Positions 1 through 62,677 of a stretch of DNA of 64,000 nt are shown in pieces (position 1 is the first letter of the stretch; every line of letters starts with the position of its first letter). Position numbers and translations under genes: made by a program. The stretch is from Microgenomates group bacterium (lineage in GTDB: Bacteria > Patescibacteriota > Microgenomatia > UBA1400 > MFAQ01): NCBI GenBank assembly GCA_049303575.1, contig JBAQNH010000002.1, positions 83,984-147,983 of the forward strand. The letters run 5' to 3'. The notes beneath the pieces are model-generated. The model saw only the letters and a list, made by a program, of their open reading frames with translations, did not search any database and was not told the DNA's origin.

Positions 1-668
1 ACATCCTCGCCGACAACGGCGCTCGTAGCGCCGCCTTCGGTTCTACCAGTCAGTTGGTTATTCCCGGTCATACTGTGTCCGTTAAAACAGGTACTACTAA
101 TGACCTCAAAGATAACTGGACCATCGGTTATACCCCTGATTATTTAGCTGTCACCTGGGTTGGCAACAACGATAACTCTTCCATGAGTTATGTTGCTTCC
201 GGAGTCACCGGGGCTTCTCCTATCTGGAACAAAATTATGAGGAGACTCCTTAAAGATGTTAAAGACAAACCCTTAGTCAAGCCAGAATTAGTCACCAATT
301 TCCAAGTCTGTAATCTCACTGGCCTCCTTGCCCAACAAGAAAATCAATGTGAATCACACAACGAGTTCTTTATCGACAACATCCTTCCCCCAGGACAGTC
401 CGCCTATCCTACAAAGATGCAGGTCTGGGTCCGCCGTTCGGATAAACAACCGATTCTTCCCGGAGACGAAACCGTTGACCGTGATCTTGAGGAACACACC
501 GTCGTCTCCGATCCCTTCACTCAAAATTTCTGCCTAGACTGCGCTTATCCCGTTGATGACAAGGGTAAAATCTCTTGGCCACAAACCATTATTGATTACT
601 CAAAGTTTCAATATAAAAACATTACCCCTGCCAATTTTCTAAATACTGTTCCTACCAATGCTCCGTAA
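1..668 (+). CDS. class A penicillin-binding protein (PBP1A-like), C-terminal fragment; 5' end lies outside the window
   Basis: Reading frame is open from base 1. Translation (..ILADNGARSAAFG..KTGTTNDLKDNWTIGYTPDYLAVTWVGNNDN..ASGVTGASPIWNKI) closely parallels the C-terminal transpeptidase region (KTGT motif) of the complete PBP at 1947..4301. Confidence 0.7.
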   Translation, partial: ILADNGARSAAFGSTSQLVIPGHTVSVKTGTTNDLKDNWTIGYTPDYLAVTWVGNNDNSSMSYVASGVTGASPIWNKIMRRLLKDVKDKPLVKPELVTNFQVCNLTGLLAQQENQCESHNEFFIDNILPPGQSAYPTKMQVWVRRSDKQPILPGDETVDRDLEEHTVVSDPFTQNFCLDCAYPVDDKGKISWPQTIIDYSKFQYKNITPANFLNTVPTNAP

Positions 669-1875
669 AATAAAAATCTTTTTCCTTTTACTCGGATTGG
701 CATTATCCTCAATCACTGCCTACGCAGTCTGGCGAAGTACCCTCCCTCTTGTTAGTCCGATTGCTCTTATCGACAGTCTTATCGGCAACTCTCCCGCCAT
801 AAAATCCGACAAGGTTATCTATGGATTTTTTCCTTACTGGAACTTAAAGTATGCCGAACAACTAAACATTAAGTCCCTCACCCATTTTGCTTACTTTGCC
901 ATTGATCTCAAAGATGACGGCTCTGTCAATAAAAAGGTTAACCTCGTTGAGTCTGAACCTGGTTGGAACAAACTTAAATCCAAGGATACTAATAAACTTT
1001 TCTACCAGTCAAAACTTCTTGGTCAAAAAACCGTTATTGTCATCACTGCCATGCAGCCGGAAACTATTGAGTCAATTCTTAATTCTCCGGAAAACAAAAG
1101 GACAGCCATTGCTTCCATCATGAATATTTATAAAGACTTCGGCTTTGATGATATCAACGTCGACTTTGAATATGTCGATACCGGCAACAAAACTTTAAGA
1201 GATAATTTTATTGACTTCATTACCAATCTTCGTTTTGCCTGTGTTTCGTATAAAAGTCATTGTCAAATTGATATCGATATCTTTGCTAGCGCTGCCGAAA
1301 AACCCCGTCTTTGGGATCTCAAACAACTCGAACCGATAACCGACAAATTTATTGTCATGGCTTACGACTACTATCGAAAATCATCGACTCAAGCTGGACC
1401 AGTTGCCCCGATAAGAGGTAAATGTTCTGGTACCTTCTCCGATGAGAAAGACTGTCTAGAAGAAGATATTCTTTCTCATATTTCTCAAATAAGTAAACTT
1501 ATTCCCTCAGACAAAATTATCCTCGGAGTACCTTTCTATGGTTATGAATGGCAAACTGCCTCTACCGATTTCCTGGCCAACACTTACCCTGGTACTGGGG
1601 CTCTTGCCACATATCAGCGGATTCAGTCTCTCTTCCAAGATACCAAAATTTCTTCCATCTCTGCTCAGTGGTCAAATTTAACTCTCAGCCCTTACCTCTC
1701 CTACGAAGAAGATGAAAAAATTTACCAAATTCATTTTGAAAATGCTCAGTCCTTGGAACAAAAAATCAAGTTTGTCGAGTCAGCCAATCTCGGTGGTATT
1801 GCCATCTGGGCCCTTGGTTATGAAGGTCCTTCACAAGATTTATGGGAACCCATAAACTCTCTTTTTCTCCCCTAG
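658..1875 (+). CDS. glycoside hydrolase family 18 (chitinase-like) protein, membrane-anchored or secreted
   Basis: N-terminal hydrophobic segment. The DDINVDFEY segment matches the GH18 DxxDxDxE catalytic motif. YGFFPYW and GVPFYGYEW segments are typical of GH18 TIM barrels. Confidence 0.6.
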   Translation: MLRKIKIFFLLLGLALSSITAYAVWRSTLPLVSPIALIDSLIGNSPAIKSDKVIYGFFPYWNLKYAEQLNIKSLTHFAYFAIDLKDDGSVNKKVNLVESEPGWNKLKSKDTNKLFYQSKLLGQKTVIVITAMQPETIESILNSPENKRTAIASIMNIYKDFGFDDINVDFEYVDTGNKTLRDNFIDFITNLRFACVSYKSHCQIDIDIFASAAEKPRLWDLKQLEPITDKFIVMAYDYYRKSSTQAGPVAPIRGKCSGTFSDEKDCLEEDILSHISQISKLIPSDKIILGVPFYGYEWQTASTDFLANTYPGTGALATYQRIQSLFQDTKISSISAQWSNLTLSPYLSYEEDEKIYQIHFENAQSLEQKIKFVESANLGGIAIWALGYEGPSQDLWEPINSLFLP

Positions 1876-5632: not shown

Positions 5633-6625
5633 TCAGGGCACATCCAAGGTTTCCTCCACTGTTTTTAGTTTTCTCTTAAGCCATTTTTCCATCTCCTTTT
5701 TATACAATAATCCGTCTTTTGCTCCCAATTTGGTCACTACCGAACCACCGTTGGCCAACCCCATTTTCAGCACCTCCTCCGCCACTCTTCCTTGTAATAA
5801 ACCAGCCACTACTCCGGAAACAAAGGCATCTCCAGCTCCTGTATCGTCAATCGATTTGTTAGGATATGCCTCCATCTTCAGCCACTTTCCCCCCTTCCAC
5901 ATCCCCGCTCCTCTATCACCATCGGTAATCATCAACAATCGCGTCCCTGCCTTCACAAAGCTATTCACCAAAACCTCTTCCTCTTCAAAACTACCACCCC
6001 AAAACTCCGCCGCTTCCATTCGATTTACGTTAAACAAATCAATTTTGGGTAAAAGACGTAACATTCTCTCTTTTTGTATCAATTCTTTTTTCCCAGGATT
6101 AACTCCAATTTTAATTCCATGCTCCACAGCAAAATCAACCAAATCCTCGAGTAAATCCATTTCTCCCCCCAAGCTGGATACCTGAATCCAGTCGGCTTTT
6201 TTAATTTCTTCCCAGTCAATTTCATTTCTCTCAATCTCGCCGCTTTCCCCACGATATGTCACGATCGATCTTCTTCCATCCGTCGCCACTAGCACCGCCG
6301 AAATACCCGTCTTCCCTTTAGTCCTTTGTAAAAAGGATAAATCCACGTTTTCCTTCTCCAATTCTTTTATCAATATTTCACTCAGTTCATCGTCTCCAAC
6401 CCTGCTTATCATTTTTACGGCTTCGCCCAGTCGATGTAATCCCGCCGCTACGTTTGTTCCTCCACCTCCACTCACCAGGACTCCATTTTCTGCCTCGATT
6501 TTTCCTCCCATCACCTCACACATCGCCACCCCACCCTCAACCTGATGGCTCTTTAAAACTCGCAAACTTTTTGATTTCAAAAGCACATCAATCACCGCTG
6601 CACCAATAACCACTACTTTCTTCAT
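5633..6625 (-). CDS. PfkB-family carbohydrate kinase (ribokinase/fructokinase-like)
   Basis: N-terminal VVIGAAVIDV and a GG dipeptide segment. C-terminal DTGAGDAFVSGVVAG matches the PfkB DTxGAGD signature. Confidence 0.75.
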   Translation of the reverse strand: MKKVVVIGAAVIDVLLKSKSLRVLKSHQVEGGVAMCEVMGGKIEAENGVLVSGGGGTNVAAGLHRLGEAVKMISRVGDDELSEILIKELEKENVDLSFLQRTKGKTGISAVLVATDGRRSIVTYRGESGEIERNEIDWEEIKKADWIQVSSLGGEMDLLEDLVDFAVEHGIKIGVNPGKKELIQKERMLRLLPKIDLFNVNRMEAAEFWGGSFEEEEVLVNSFVKAGTRLLMITDGDRGAGMWKGGKWLKMEAYPNKSIDDTGAGDAFVSGVVAGLLQGRVAEEVLKMGLANGGSVVTKLGAKDGLLYKKEMEKWLKRKLKTVEETLDVP

Positions 6626-52560: not shown

Positions 52561-52733
52561 AACTTCATTGTTTCTAAATAATGTTTATAATTTTACTCTT
52601 TTGATAAGTAATAATTAGTGAGATTTGATATACAACCAATGACTTTTGTGTTTCCATAATACTGGTTACACTCTTAAACCGAGTTCCCCATCACTGCAAA
52701 GTCGTGATAATATGCTCTGTTGAGGGTAACCAG

Positions 52734-52817
52734 CGGAGACGGTGGGATTCGAACCCACGGGACTTTTTCAAGTCATGGTTTAGCGAACCATTGTCTTAAC
52801 CACTGGACTACGTCTCC
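52734..52817 (-). tRNA. tRNA-Ser (anticodon GCT), class II with a long variable arm
   Basis: Acceptor GGAGACG/CGTCTCC, anticodon stem ATGGT/ACCAT with loop TCGCTAA, variable hairpin GACTT..AAGTC, T-arm TGGG-TTCGAAT-CCCA, discriminator G. Coordinates +/-2. Confidence 0.8.
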
Positions 52818-53900: not shown

Positions 53901-53982
53901 GGAGAGTGGGCAGGACGGTAATGCGTTGGTCTTGAAAACCAATGAGCGCAAGCTCTAACAGGTTCGACCCCTGTACTCTCCG
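53901..53982 (+). tRNA. tRNA-Ser (anticodon TGA), class II
   Basis: Acceptor GGAGAGT/ACTCTCC, anticodon stem TTGGT/ACCAA with loop CTTGAAA, variable hairpin GAGC-GCAA-GCTC, T-arm CAGG-TTCGACC-CCTG, discriminator G. Preceded by TAAAAT. Confidence 0.8.
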
Positions 53983-53987
53983 CCTCA

Positions 53988-54072
53988 GGAGGGGTCGCAT
54001 AGTGGTCGAGTGCTCCGGTTTACTAAACCGGCGTATCGCAAGATACCGCGGGTTCGAATCCCGCCCCCTCCG
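53988..54072 (+). tRNA. class II (Ser-type) tRNA with an apparent anticodon ACT (unusual A34); possibly a tRNA-Ser variant or pseudogene
   Basis: Acceptor GGAGGGG/CCCCTCC, 3-bp D-stem GCA/TGC as in tRNA-Ser, anticodon stem CCGGT/ACCGG with loop TTACTAA, variable hairpin GTATC-GCAA-GATAC, T-arm GCGGG-TTCGAAT-CCCGC, discriminator G. Confidence 0.55.
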
Positions 54073-54094
54073 CATTTAAATAGTTACACAACTA

Positions 54095-58277: not shown

Positions 58278-58395
58278 AAAACAATTCTAACCGAGTAAAT
58301 ACAAAAAATCTCCCCGTTAGGAGAGATTTTTGTATATTGTGGAGATGGGGCGCCACTTCTTGAACCATTTCTGTTATCCCTCATTTCTTCGGTAA

Positions 58396-58716
58396 ATGAT
58401 AACTGGCACTTGGAAAATGACAACCGTTGGCTTTTGCTTCCACCCGAAAAAAGTGATGGTCTTTCTTCGTATAATAGTTATAGTGACTATAAATACTAAA
58501 CCCAAGCAATTACCCAAACCGAAAGTGGCTGTTCCTGTTCCTCAGCCACGAATTAGGATACTTGATGGCGGATATAACTCGGGCATTTCGGGCTTTGTCA
58601 GCTCCCTTCAATCAGTCAATCTCAATGCTCCCGAAGCCTCACAAAACGCCCACTCAATAAGCGACAACCGAGGTGGAAGAATAGAGCTTGGCTTGGAGAA
58701 TTACATTAAGAAGTGA
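58396..58716 (+). CDS. hypothetical protein (first gene of the putative integrated element)
   Basis: ORF only. Hydrophobic N-terminus. Confidence 0.25.
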   Translation: MITGTWKMTTVGFCFHPKKVMVFLRIIVIVTINTKPKQLPKPKVAVPVPQPRIRILDGGYNSGISGFVSSLQSVNLNAPEASQNAHSISDNRGGRIELGLENYIKK

Positions 58717-58757
58717 GACCTTGAACCTTTCAGGATGAAGGTCAAGTAAGTAATTAA

Positions 58758-59192
58758 ATGGACGAAGAAACCGACATAATTTTCCGAAAAGTGGAGCCTT
58801 TCTTGAAGTGCGGTCTGAGCCTCCACAAAGCCTGTCTACAGGCTCAAATACCCAAAAGCACGGCATATGACCTATACAAGAATAACAAGTCATTCTCGGA
58901 AAGAATAGACACCAGTAGAAATTATTACTCAGTGCTTGTAACTAGCATTGTCACGAAGGAGCTTGAGAGGATAAGCTCAAAGCAAGACCGAGGTAAGAAA
59001 TTACAACCATTGGAAGTCAGGCTCATTCAATGGATAGCCACAAACAGCCGTTCTCTCAAGGGTGAGTATGGCGACGAGCCTGAGAAATTGGATGAAGAGA
59101 TAAAGCAAGACGACACCATTACATTACTTCAAAAAATAATTAACGACTGTTCTCGGAAAGACAAGGATACACTGGAAGAGCAACCCTCTTGA
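58758..59192 (+). CDS. hypothetical protein, possible HTH (terminase-small-subunit-like) N-terminus
   Basis: GLSLHKACLQAQIPKSTAYDLY resembles a helix-turn-helix. Acidic C-terminus. Confidence 0.3.
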   Translation: MDEETDIIFRKVEPFLKCGLSLHKACLQAQIPKSTAYDLYKNNKSFSERIDTSRNYYSVLVTSIVTKELERISSKQDRGKKLQPLEVRLIQWIATNSRSLKGEYGDEPEKLDEEIKQDDTITLLQKIINDCSRKDKDTLEEQPS

Positions 59193-59311
59193 ACGGTATT
59201 TATAATCATTATAAGTTGTCCTCTTTGGGTTGAGTTTCCTTTCTGCTTCAACCATCACATTCCAACTCGGATTAGCCAACTTAATACTTAGGTAAATTAA
59301 CTCCTACAAGG

Positions 59312-59905
59312 CTAATCATTAAGGTGTTGCATAGCGTAGTCTGCTTCTGCCGCTGTAAATTTACCGCCATACTGTGAAACGAGTTGGTCACGAACAGCTG
59401 CTGGTGACAGGTTCATAGTATCTTGGTAAGTTTTTGCCTGTGAGAGAGCATTTGCATTCCAATTTGCTTTTACATTATCTATTGCATATTGTGCTGCTTT
59501 TGGCGAAAATTTCCCGCCATATTGTGAAACAAGTTGGTCATAGACACCCTGCTTAGACAAATGCATTGAGTTGGCATATGTTGTTGCTTGGGCAAGAGCA
59601 GATTTGTATTCCGCTGGCACATTTGTGCTTGGTGCTGTTGGTGCAATCGGAGTGGTTTTTGCGGAAACTGTCACACTGGGAGTTGGTTGAGTAGTATCGG
59701 TATCAGTAGTGACGGTCTCGTTACTCTCGGTTGTTTTACTTCCCTTACCTCCACTTGCAGAACCAATCATACCCAAAATAAATATAGCCAAAATAACCGT
59801 GAGTATCGGATGTCTTGCAAACCAAATCCTTTGGTCTGACTGACAATAAGGACACTTCTTGGCTTTATTATCTATCTCTTTCTGACAAGACTTACATTTT
59901 TTCAT
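59312..59905 (-). CDS. Ltp-family (PF07553-like) surface protein with an N-terminal zinc ribbon and TM anchor; putative superinfection-exclusion protein
   Basis: CKSCQ..CPYC zinc ribbon, one TM helix and a Thr-rich linker. Two tandem repeats: QATTYANSMHLSKQGVYDQLVSQYGGKFSPKAAQYAIDNV and QAKTYQDTMNLSPAAVRDQLVSQYGGKFTAAEADYAMQHL. Confidence 0.55.
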   Translation of the reverse strand: MKKCKSCQKEIDNKAKKCPYCQSDQRIWFARHPILTVILAIFILGMIGSASGGKGSKTTESNETVTTDTDTTQPTPSVTVSAKTTPIAPTAPSTNVPAEYKSALAQATTYANSMHLSKQGVYDQLVSQYGGKFSPKAAQYAIDNVKANWNANALSQAKTYQDTMNLSPAAVRDQLVSQYGGKFTAAEADYAMQHLND

Positions 59906-60019
59906 TATTCTTGTTTGTTAATAATTTTTTAATACTCCTTGTCACCTACCTACTTCAAATTGTAATCCATTCCACAGTCTAAAAACAACAATGCAGTTCG
60001 GGGATGTAAAATCAGGGCA

Positions 60020-61561
60020 ATGGAATACTACGACCTTGATGTCACAAAACTAAAGTATGTCCTCTACCTTCGCAAGTCCACCGACGACGCTCAAAGGCAA
60101 GTCAGGTCTATTGGCGACCAAGAGGCAGAATGCTTTGACCTCCAAAGACGGCTCGGACTAAATATCGTCAAAACCATAAAGGAAACAAAGTCGGCAAAGT
60201 CCCCTAACAAGCGTCCACAATTCCGAGAAATGCTTGATGGAATAAAAATGGGCAAGTATGACGCCATTCTTGCTTGGAACCCCGATAGGTTGGCAAGAAA
60301 TATGCTTGAGGGTGGAGAAATAATTTATTTGGTGGACGAAAACATTATCAAAGACCTAAAGTTCGTTACTCACCCATTCACACCCGACCCAAACGGCAAA
60401 ATGCTTCTCGGGTTGGCTTTTGTCCTCTCCAAGCAATACTCGGATGACCTCTCTCAAAAGATTTCCCGAGGAGTAAAAAGAAGCTTCAGTGAAGGCAAGA
60501 TTGGCACCTACAAACATGGTTACAAGCGTGATGATGAAGGGTTCCAAGTTCCCGACGGAAAGAAGTTTGAGCTCATTAAGGAGGCTTGGGAGCTTAGAGC
60601 CGAAGGTCGTTCCCTTGAAGAAATAGCCTCCATCATAAACGACAAGGGATATGAGAGAAAAATAAAAAGAACGGGAGTAATTATGAAGGCAGACGCCAAA
60701 CTATTGAGTAAGCTTTTCCGAGACCCATTTTATTTTGGAACTTTGATACAAGCGGGTCAAACAATAAACCTTCTCCAATTTGGCTTTATTCCTGCCACCA
60801 CAAAAGAAGTTTACGAACATATCCAGTTGCTCTCATCAAACCGACTCCGACCATTCAATGTCAGGCGAATGACATTCTTCCCTCTTAAGGCAATACTGAG
60901 GTGTTCATTTTGCGGAAAGAATATGGTGGTGGCTCCATCAACAAGCCGAGGAGGAGGAAAGCTTTTGTATTGTCGTTGCGATACCAAAGGATGTCCGAGG
61001 ATAAAGAAATCGCTCCGAATGAAGTTTGTCTTTGATTTTATCTACGACTTTTTGGATAACAATCTAAAAATCACCGAGAAGGAATACCAAAAATATCTTG
61101 ATGAAACCGACGCTCTCAATGTAGAAGCGACAAGTAATACCTACCTTCAAATCCATACTCTTGAGGGACAGGTAAAAGCTATCACCCAAGAAATCAAGGA
61201 AAGCTCACTTGGTCTCGTCAAAATAAACTCCAAATCTCCAGCCTTCAATATAGTAAACGATAGGATTTCAAGCCTAGACAATGAAAAGTCAGGCTTGGAA
61301 GAGAAACTACGAGACCTCAGGAGCACTCTAAAAAGCCCCGAGAGTCAGAGGTTGGGTATGGATGAGTTCTTGAACCTGTGTAAAAATGCGGGTGCTATCG
61401 CAAGAAGTGCCACCGAAGTTCAAAAAGATACAATTTGCCGATATGTTTTCTTGAACCTATCTGTGGATGAGGAAAAAGTAGTGGCATATCAACTAAAAGA
61501 GCCGTTCAACACATTGGTCAAACGGCTCTTTATCCAAGAAGGTGGAGACGGAGGGAATTGA
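60020..61561 (+). mobile_element. large serine recombinase (serine integrase) CDS
   Basis: Resolvase-type catalytic N-terminus (VLYLRKSTDDAQRQ, nucleophilic Ser), recombinase domain, zinc-ribbon (CSFCGKN..CRC) and coiled-coil. The 3' end overlaps the tmRNA 3' end. Confidence 0.85.
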
Positions 61562-61935
61562 ACCCTCGTCTGAAATAATAAATCTACAATTTCTACAAGC
61601 TTAGTTTGCCGTTTTTCCATAAAGCTTCAGGCAAACAAGAACACTTTATGGTCGACTTAGAATAAGTTAGTCTCCAAGCCTAAATCACGCCTTGAAGCAT
61701 TCAATCCGGTGTTTTTTCGCCTTAAAGGTACCCCGGGATCCGATATTCTCTAGAGCGTCTCGAACTCGAGTTTAGGCAAAAGCGTAAACGGGAGCGAAAG
61801 ATTTGGCTTCACTTGAGGTGAAACCAAGTAACTTGTCTTCTTTATTGACAGTTGTATTTTGGTCTTTTTTACTCCTTTTACCAAAGGAGGCTTGCAGTTG
61901 TAAACGTACTAGTCCATCGATTCCGGTCGTCCCCA
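61541..61935 (-). ncRNA. ssrA: tmRNA (ssrA), about 395 nt
   Basis: 5' GGGGACGACCGGAATCGATGG matches the tmRNA 5' consensus (GGGGnuGAuucuGGAUUCGAcGG). Acceptor GGGGACG pairs with 3' CGTCTCC, giving a G3:U wobble, with discriminator A plus CC. T-arm GAGGG-TTCAATT-CCCTC. Candidate tag ORF GCC..TAA encodes AKSFAPVYAFA. smpB lies immediately upstream. Confidence 0.75.
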
Positions 61936-61983: not shown

Positions 61984-62226
61984 TTAGGACCTTAATGTTC
62001 TAAAATACTCAATTTTCTCAGTCAAAGTGACTCCCATCATCTGAGCACGAGACGCAGCCATTACCACACCAGCCAAAAATAAATCAAATTCGTCATCATC
62101 CATCGCGGATACTTTAGCTTTTATGCCTTCTTGCCACTTTTTCAGGCTCATTTTCGGCGTAAAATCCTTACTCCATGAATAATTAACGATGCTGGCAGGC
62201 ATTACTTTACTCCAAAATAGGTCCAT
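61984..62226 (-). CDS. small hypothetical protein between smpB and ssrA
   Basis: ORF of 80 aa. No motif. Confidence 0.3.
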   Translation of the reverse strand: MDLFWSKVMPASIVNYSWSKDFTPKMSLKKWQEGIKAKVSAMDDDEFDLFLAGVVMAASRAQMMGVTLTEKIEYFRTLRS

Positions 62227-62236
62227 TTTTACCCTT

Positions 62237-62677
62237 TCAGTTAGTTAGTTTTAAACGTCTCGCAAGACCCAACTGACTTTCACGCTTTTTGAGTATCTCT
62301 CTTTTTTCAAACTTCTTCTTGCCTCGGACTAAAGCGATCTTCACCTTCACGAGACTGCCCTTATTATACAGCGAGATAGGCACGACTGTCAACCCTGCCG
62401 ATCTCATTTTGCTCTGAATCTCGATGATTTCTTTCCTGTGCAGCAACAATTTTCTTCGTTTGTCGGGATCATATTCCTCCGCACTGTCATGCCTGTACTT
62501 GGGAATGCTCAGTCCCAGCACATACGCCCCGTCATTCTCAAAAATGACTCTTGCTCCCAACATCGTTGCTCCTCCGTCACGAACACTTTTCACCTCAGCC
62601 CCACTCAATACAATACCGGACTCAAAATCCTCAATAATCTCATAATCAAATCTGGCTTTTTTATTCTCCACGATCAT
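62237..62677 (-). CDS. smpB: SsrA-binding protein SmpB
   Basis: ARFDYEI..GIVL.GAEVKS..KRRKLLLHRKEI..KGSLVKVKIALVRGKK are canonical SmpB motifs. Confidence 0.9.
   Translation of the reverse strand: MIVENKKARFDYEIIEDFESGIVLSGAEVKSVRDGGATMLGARVIFENDGAYVLGLSIPKYRHDSAEEYDPDKRRKLLLHRKEIIEIQSKMRSAGLTVVPISLYNKGSLVKVKIALVRGKKKFEKREILKKRESQLGLARRLKLTN

Follow-up and report, generated by a model that had tools for sequence, protein, structure and literature searches.

A polylinker-like cluster of restriction sites in a Candidatus Collierbacteria ssrA gene probably reflects pseudoknot PK2 of the tmRNA

The second pseudoknot of tmRNA, PK2, is made up of helices 6 and 7 and has good support in tmRNAs from across the bacteria (PMC1168896). 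The pseudoknots of tmRNA have been described as functionally interchangeable (PMC1168896). The tmRNA gene, ssrA, can also have mobile DNA beside it: Dehalococcoides carries ssrA-specific genomic islands with a large serine recombinase, DsiB (PMC3146451).

Here we describe an ssrA locus that looks, over 44 nucleotides, as if a cloning polylinker had been placed in it. The locus lies in a stretch of 64,000 nucleotides that we will call the window, which has a GC content of 41.1%. A first-pass annotation had reported six type II restriction sites (KpnI, SmaI, BamHI, XbaI, BsmBI, and XhoI) at 61728-61771. All six sites are real, but the cluster lies one base to the left of those coordinates: the 44-mer that was quoted, GGTACCCCGGGATCCGATATTCTCTAGAGCGTCTCGAACTCGAG, corresponds to 61727..61770 of the window. 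The cluster was correctly placed inside ssrA, just 3' of the stop codon of the tag; it starts one base 3' of that codon. The SpeI, ClaI, SalI, and two HindIII sites that had been noted nearby are present as well, and ssrA contains all of the listed sites. Table 1 gives the positions of these sites and of the other features that we discuss.

Table 1. Features of the window, with positions counted from its first nucleotide
Feature	Position	Strand	Basis or comment
405-aa ORF	658..1875		
Second five-palindrome cluster (EcoRV, ClaI, EcoRV, NheI, AfeI)	1270..1293		24 bp; in the range of the 405-aa ORF
tRNA-Ser(GCU)	52733..52817		
tRNA-Ser(TGA)	53901..53984		
Type-II tRNA, anticodon ACU, tRNA-Ser(act)	53988..54073	+	ARAGORN
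Insertion at ssrA 3' end	58339..61541		comparison with L001 and L002
Imperfect repeat copy CCATCTCCAC	58339..58348		element boundary
Small ORF of element	58396..58716		
Small ORF of element	58758..59192		
Ltp-type superinfection-exclusion lipoprotein	59312..59905	-	element cargo
513-aa large serine recombinase, 3' end overlaps ssrA antisense	60020..61561		Pfam Resolvase, Recombinase, Zn_ribbon_recom; PHROG integrase E = 1e-55
ssrA (tmRNA), complete: tRNA-like domain, tag reading frame, pseudoknots	61540..61934	-	Rfam RF00023 and ARAGORN
Repeat copy CCGTCTCCAC, end of ssrA	61542..61551		element boundary
HindIII (two sites)	61597 and 61622	+	site positions
SalI	61651	+	site position
PK2 stem 2 3' strand CCGGAU (columns 51-56), within invariant ACCGGAUUGAAU (pairing predicted)	61704..61709	-	alignment
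A-rich single-stranded connector AAAAAACA, 8 nt (columns 43-50), nearly invariant	61710..61717	-	alignments
PK2 stem 1 3' strand (columns 28-42); contains KpnI	61718..61732	-	covariation, RNAalifold
KpnI	61727 (61727..61732)	+	site position
SmaI	61732 (61732..61737)	+	site position
Proposed stem 2 (helix 7) 5' strand AUCC(C)GG	61733..61739	-	pairing potential
PK2 9-nt hairpin loop GGAUCCCGG; BamHI and most of SmaI	61733..61741	-	invariant 20/20, RNAalifold
BamHI	61736 (61736..61741)	+	site position
PK2 stem 1 5' strand (columns 3-18; helix 6); contains XbaI	61742..61757	-	covariation, RNAalifold
XbaI	61749 (61749..61754)	+	site position
BsmBI (CGTCTC)	61756 (61756..61761)	+	site position
Unpaired linker, stop codon to PK2, variable between genomes; holds XhoI and half of BsmBI	61758..61771	-	alignment
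XhoI	61765 (61765..61770)	+	site position
Tag reading frame, tmRNA positions 86-163, stop UAA 61774..61772	61772..61849	-	ARAGORN
SpeI	61908	+	site position
ClaI	61916	+	site position
80-aa ORF between smpB and ssrA	61984..62226	-	
smpB, protein partner of tmRNA	62237..62677	-	Pfam PF01668, E = 3e-45

The gene around the cluster is ssrA. The Rfam tmRNA model (RF00023) matches with a score of 116 bits, as compared to a gathering score of 47, and the match covers model positions 1-374 of 374. ARAGORN calls a tmRNA at 61541..61934 with the tag VNKEDKLLGFTSSEAKSFAPVYAFA*. In the acceptor stem, GGGGACG at the 5' end pairs with CGUCUCC at the 3' end, which gives a G3-U pair, and the Rfam model aligns the T-arm, GGGUUCAAUUCCC, at high posterior probability. 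The end of the tag (...SFAPVYAFA*) is kept in 19 related loci. The protein partner of tmRNA is encoded about 300 bp upstream of ssrA, and this synteny also holds in relatives.

We noticed several other aspects of this locus. Across the window and loci L001-L023, the tmRNA tag of Collierbacteria has 25-32 residues and ends in ...YAFA or ...YANA, as compared to the common ...LAA. The resume codon that ARAGORN reports for these tmRNAs is GUC (Val), not GCN, and a 21-nt in-frame block in the region of the tag and helix 5 differs between lineages of Collierbacteria. Also, an 80-aa ORF lies between smpB and ssrA in all of the Collierbacteria loci that extend this far (about 50), with identities of 57-99%. 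It has no match in Pfam, PHROG, or NCBIfam. This ORF is an uncharacterized small protein that is fixed in the trans-translation locus.

The closest relatives of the window's SmpB are from metagenome-assembled genomes of Candidatus Collierbacteria (candidate phyla radiation, or Patescibacteria), with identities that range from 99% down to 65%. The source genome belongs to Candidatus Collierbacteria, which are uncultured and are known from metagenome-assembled genomes. By scanning for SmpB and keeping one genome per species, we fetched 30 loci for the analysis of orthologous ssrA genes. ARAGORN found ssrA beside smpB, with the same unusual tag, in 19 of these 30 loci, and it missed L016, L020, and L021. 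We added the ssrA of L016, which contains N bases, from the Rfam search. Rfam also recovered a truncated copy from L021; the contig of L020 stops short of ssrA. This smpB-anchored set comprises 20 complete orthologs, which were picked without reference to the site motif.

We also scanned metagenomes with the conserved PK2 motif, which gave 30 further contigs from many projects. Because the scan pattern fixes both the loop and stem 2, these 30 contigs provide no evidence on the invariance of either, and only the smpB-anchored set counts for that purpose.

The ssrA gene of the window is 79-97% identical to the ssrA genes of 19 Collierbacteria loci. In the nearest relative (L002), ssrA is 97.4% identical to the window and the flanks are 93% identical. 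The divergence has no local discontinuity at ssrA and is unremarkable here. In one sublineage of Collierbacteria (L020, L021, and L023), ssrA is on the opposite strand to smpB, which inverts the locus as compared to the window.

Aligned with MAFFT, the segment with the site cluster matches column for column across 20 ssrA genes. Its core, GGATCCCGGG, in which BamHI overlaps SmaI, is invariant in 20/20 complete smpB-anchored orthologs. KpnI is present in 3 of the 20 aligned genes (counting the window, here and below), XbaI is at the homologous position in 3, and XhoI is in 4. The internal BsmBI site is found in the window alone (1/20), which has GAGACG where all of the other genomes have AAGACG. 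An AatII site (GACGTC) lies a few bases away in 18 of the 20 genes. The first-pass annotation had proposed an alignment to ssrA from related genomes as a check, and the conservation of the homologous stretch and of its core identifies this as natural sequence.

If we consider all 50 sequences, the homologous stretch contains three, four, or five 6-bp palindromes in 14, 27, and 9 of them, respectively. Eight other sequences equal the window's five. For instance, L003, L048, and L050 each have five sites in this stretch (XhoI, AatII, BamHI, SmaI, and KpnI). Because every one of the 50 stretches carries 3-5 palindromes, the polylinker-like look is a clade-wide property of this RNA gene, with the window at the upper end of the distribution. 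The exact 44-mer of the window was in none of the other contigs from the 30-contig metagenome scan, so the six-site version is without an independent replicate. The window-specific bases are the G at 61731, which makes the KpnI site, and TTCGAGACG, which makes the BsmBI site; these bases (for KpnI, relative to L002) come from one assembly.

To describe the structure of this segment, we used 61 aligned columns, from GACG (window position 61759) to GAAU (61699). These columns conform to an H-type pseudoknot, located where PK2 lies in tmRNA. Across the whole model, 96.1% of cells form standard pairs in a set of 19 sequences and 97.0% do so in a set of 28 distinct sequences. If the partners are slid by 1-3 columns, then only 29-48% (19 sequences) or 29-49% (28 distinct sequences) of cells in the whole structure are paired.

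Stem 1 is established by covariation. Its cells are paired in 94-96% of cases, and 7 of its 14 pairs have compensatory changes (on both sides) in the 19- and 28-sequence sets alike. For instance, columns 17 and 29 are C-G, U-G, G-C, or U-A, and columns 12 and 33 are G-C or A-U. In both sets, none of 500 shuffles reached the observed covariation score. Without being given the proposed model, RNAalifold recovers 13 of the 14 pairs, with exactly the invariant 9-mer as a hairpin loop. The remaining pair, between columns 15 and 31, is weak: it is not predicted by RNAalifold and is unpaired in 7/19 and 7/28 sequences. We treated these columns as part of a putative internal loop.

For stem 2, we infer the pairing of AUCC(C)GG, in the loop, with the invariant CCGGAU, which is 30 nt downstream. 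All six pairs are possible in every sequence; both strands are invariant, hence there is no covariation. The Rfam tmRNA consensus has a semi-conserved "ugGGaUa" that aligns with the 3' strand of stem 2. A distant tmRNA from Patescibacteria (L024, with an SmpB that is 53% identical) also has GGAUCC in its PK2 loop and CCGGAU downstream. Two other distant tmRNAs (L025 and L026) had no confident alignment, and our claims of covariation do not extend to L024-L026. The Rfam model found no alignment here for its own PK2 helix; therefore, the dimensions of PK2 here depart from the consensus.

We propose that the site cluster is the DNA that encodes PK2 (helices 6 and 7) in a genuine and functional tmRNA gene of Candidatus Collierbacteria, and we are highly confident of this. 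In the proposed structure, an interrupted stem 1 of 13-14 bp would close the invariant 9-nt loop, and the AUCC(C)GG bases of the loop would pair with CCGGAU, 8 nt past the stem, to form an H-type pseudoknot. The loop, together with the closing C18-G28 pair of stem 1, corresponds to the BamHI and SmaI sites. These sites are probably present because selection on the RNA holds the loop and the closing C-G pair constant. This contradicts the initial view that perfect 6-bp palindromes are not required in this region: for the core, the palindromes coincide with an invariant PK2 loop that can pair with the invariant CCGGAU.

The other four sites have another status. KpnI is the top of the 3' strand of stem 1 (G28 G29 U30 A31 C32 C33) and XbaI lies in the 5' strand (columns 6-11). 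The sequence of these strands drifts freely while the pairing is kept. The nearest relative, L002, lacks KpnI through a change of G29 to A, and this A still pairs with U17. XhoI and BsmBI lie in the variable unpaired linker after the stop codon. Thus, RNA structure would hold two of the sites in place, and the other four arose by chance in particular lineages.

Could the pile-up of six sites be purely coincidental, with none of them constrained? The density had been called unexpected for a genome of roughly this GC content, but it is only mildly above chance. We simulated 300 64-kb windows with the second-order Markov statistics of the window itself; in 28 of them (9%), a span of 44 bp contained five or more distinct GC-containing 6-bp palindromes. 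The window itself contains a second cluster of five palindromes (Table 1), so such clusters occur elsewhere in it. The whole of ssrA contains 10 six-bp palindromes, as compared to 4.4 expected (Poisson P = 0.015). The four variable sites are also sporadic among the relatives, as coincidence would have it. These statistics alone would not settle the origin of the cluster; the comparison with relatives does. The core is invariant in all 20 of the independently selected orthologs, whose SmpB proteins are 65-99% identical, while neighboring stem positions vary freely. Therefore, the core appears to be under purifying selection rather than coincidental. As an explanation for all six sites, chance is very unlikely. 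It is refuted for the BamHI/SmaI core, and it stands for KpnI, XbaI, XhoI, and BsmBI, each of which is found in few lineages, so chance, as one of the origins that were originally suggested, is right in part.

The other suggested origins involve cloning. If vector contamination or a chimeric assembly had put a polylinker into ssrA, this would account for the order KpnI-SmaI-BamHI...XbaI, which is as in pUC19. The KpnI-SmaI-BamHI block of pUC19 is GGTACCCGGGGATCC, and the corresponding block of the window, GGTACCCCGGGATCC, differs from it at 1 of 15 positions, so 14/15 bases of the overlapping block are identical. However, the longest exact word that the segment shares with the polylinkers of pUC19 or pBluescript II is just 8-9 nt. 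This is the background level: random 395-nt chunks of the window reach a match of 8-9 nt in 11-17% of trials. When we compared ssrA to 72,556 plasmids and 50,697 phage records, using blastn with E values of up to 10, we found nothing over the site cluster. The matches that we did find were to the tRNA-like 3' end or were short chance matches. Flanking vector sequence is absent, and PK2 would be incomplete without the segment. Furthermore, the homologous parts of ssrA on 49 other contigs, which come from many unrelated projects, align to the segment column by column, and the invariance of the BamHI/SmaI core extends across 20/20 orthologs from unrelated metagenome projects. We reject vector contamination or a chimera, which has an extremely low probability given that all 49 related contigs have the homologous stretch and that the match to the pUC19 and pBluescript II polylinkers is at background.

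Similarly, a cloning cassette could have been deliberately placed after the ssrA tag. What speaks for this is the appearance of the sequence alone. The closest relatives that we found all come from environmental metagenomes, either as assembled genomes or as contigs, and the same architecture is found across the whole clade, with the same core in 20/20 complete smpB-anchored Collierbacteria orthologs. Each of the window-specific sites is only 1-3 point changes or a 1-nt indel away from the nearest relative, which is like the background divergence. Also, no culture of Collierbacteria and no genetic system for them is known. As the architecture is clade-wide and the relatives are metagenome-derived, we reject engineering as well; its probability is vanishingly small.

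A different question is whether the self-complementary GGAUCC in GGAUCCCGG is kept for a role beyond helix 7. Such a role may involve kissing between the loops of two tmRNAs, or it may involve a lineage-specific contact with a protein or the ribosome in these reduced-genome bacteria. The loop and its partner strand have zero variation, while the adjacent stem covaries freely, and the PK2 loop of L024, the distant tmRNA from Patescibacteria, contains GGAUCC as well. On the other hand, the intramolecular pairing with CCGGAU already accounts for much of the constraint, and interchangeable pseudoknots (PMC1168896) would argue against a specialized role for this one. We consider an additional role to be quite improbable. 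The absolute invariance of a self-complementary loop is the only mildly novel residue of this analysis, and it might point to a further interaction.

Relative to L001 and L002, which have an empty site, the window has a 3.2-kb insertion exactly at the 3' end of ssrA. The empty site reads ...CCGTCTCCAC|AATATAC..., and in the window, the element separates these two flanks. It is bounded by CCGTCTCCAC, at the end of ssrA, and by an imperfect copy, CCATCTCCAC. A search for repeats at the ends of the element found nothing besides this 10-bp imperfect direct repeat. The predicted circular attP junction has ...GGCGCCCCATCTCCAC joined to CTTCTTGGATAAAG... The element encodes a large serine recombinase and an Ltp-type lipoprotein, and it has two small ORFs (Table 1). 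The recombinase has a weak match to CcrB (E = 1e-7), which is far below the cutoff for that family. A distant member of the Collierbacteria (L020, whose SmpB is 68% identical) shares this element end and has homologs of the two small ORFs, with identities of 92% and 82%. Because of this, the element appears to be mobile and specific for the 3' end of ssrA.

Two other features of the window lie farther from ssrA. A type-II tRNA with a clean cloverleaf and the anticodon ACU, which ARAGORN identifies as tRNA-Ser(act), is directly after tRNA-Ser(TGA); the window also encodes tRNA-Ser(GCU). A34 is unusual for a bacterial serine tRNA. The same tandem of TGA and ACT is found in L023, at 6129..6304. 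Also, the first 50 kb of the window have a very strong negative GC skew (-0.2 to -0.4), which drops to about 0 to -0.15 across the tRNA-rich region from 50-62 kb and then returns to -0.39.

This region of the genome needs no contamination flag: what looks like a cloning artifact is a normal and selectively maintained part of an essential RNA gene. More generally, structured RNA genes can mimic polylinkers, because palindromic hexamers can accumulate where invariant loops and drifting paired strands occur together. A minor gain is a covariation-supported model of PK2 for the tmRNA of Collierbacteria, in a region that the Rfam model fails to align.

Among known systems, the ssrA islands of Dehalococcoides (PMC3146451) are the closest precedent for the integrated element, but not for the site cluster. 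In both, a gene for a large serine recombinase of about 500 amino acids is directly at the 3' end of ssrA. The element in the window is only 3.2 kb, its cargo is an Ltp-type lipoprotein, and it is without a second small recombinase. Its repeat is 10 bp, imperfect, and at the extreme 3' end of ssrA, while the Dehalococcoides islands have a 20-bp repeat and insert in the T-loop.

Like the multiple cloning sites of pUC and pBluescript, the site cluster is dense in 6-bp sites, with overlapping KpnI, SmaI, and BamHI sites in the order found there and with XbaI and XhoI close by. It differs from them in that exact matches are at most 8-9 nt, the 15-nt block has a mismatch, there are no vector flanks, and the stretch belongs to an RNA gene and is conserved with it in wild relatives.

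The closest likeness of the cluster is to the bacterial tmRNA itself (RF00023). The window shares with it the full-length match to the model, the tRNA-like domain with G3-U, a tag ORF with its stop codon, PK1, and an adjacent smpB. It also has a pseudoknot directly after the tag's stop codon, with a long helix 6 and a loop that is predicted to pair with a GGAU-containing strand downstream. The differences are in degree: the dimensions of helix 6 depart from the Rfam consensus, which is why the Rfam model skips this helix here, and within Collierbacteria, the loop and helix 7 show an unusual lack of variation. The feature is natural, ordinary, and already known in kind.
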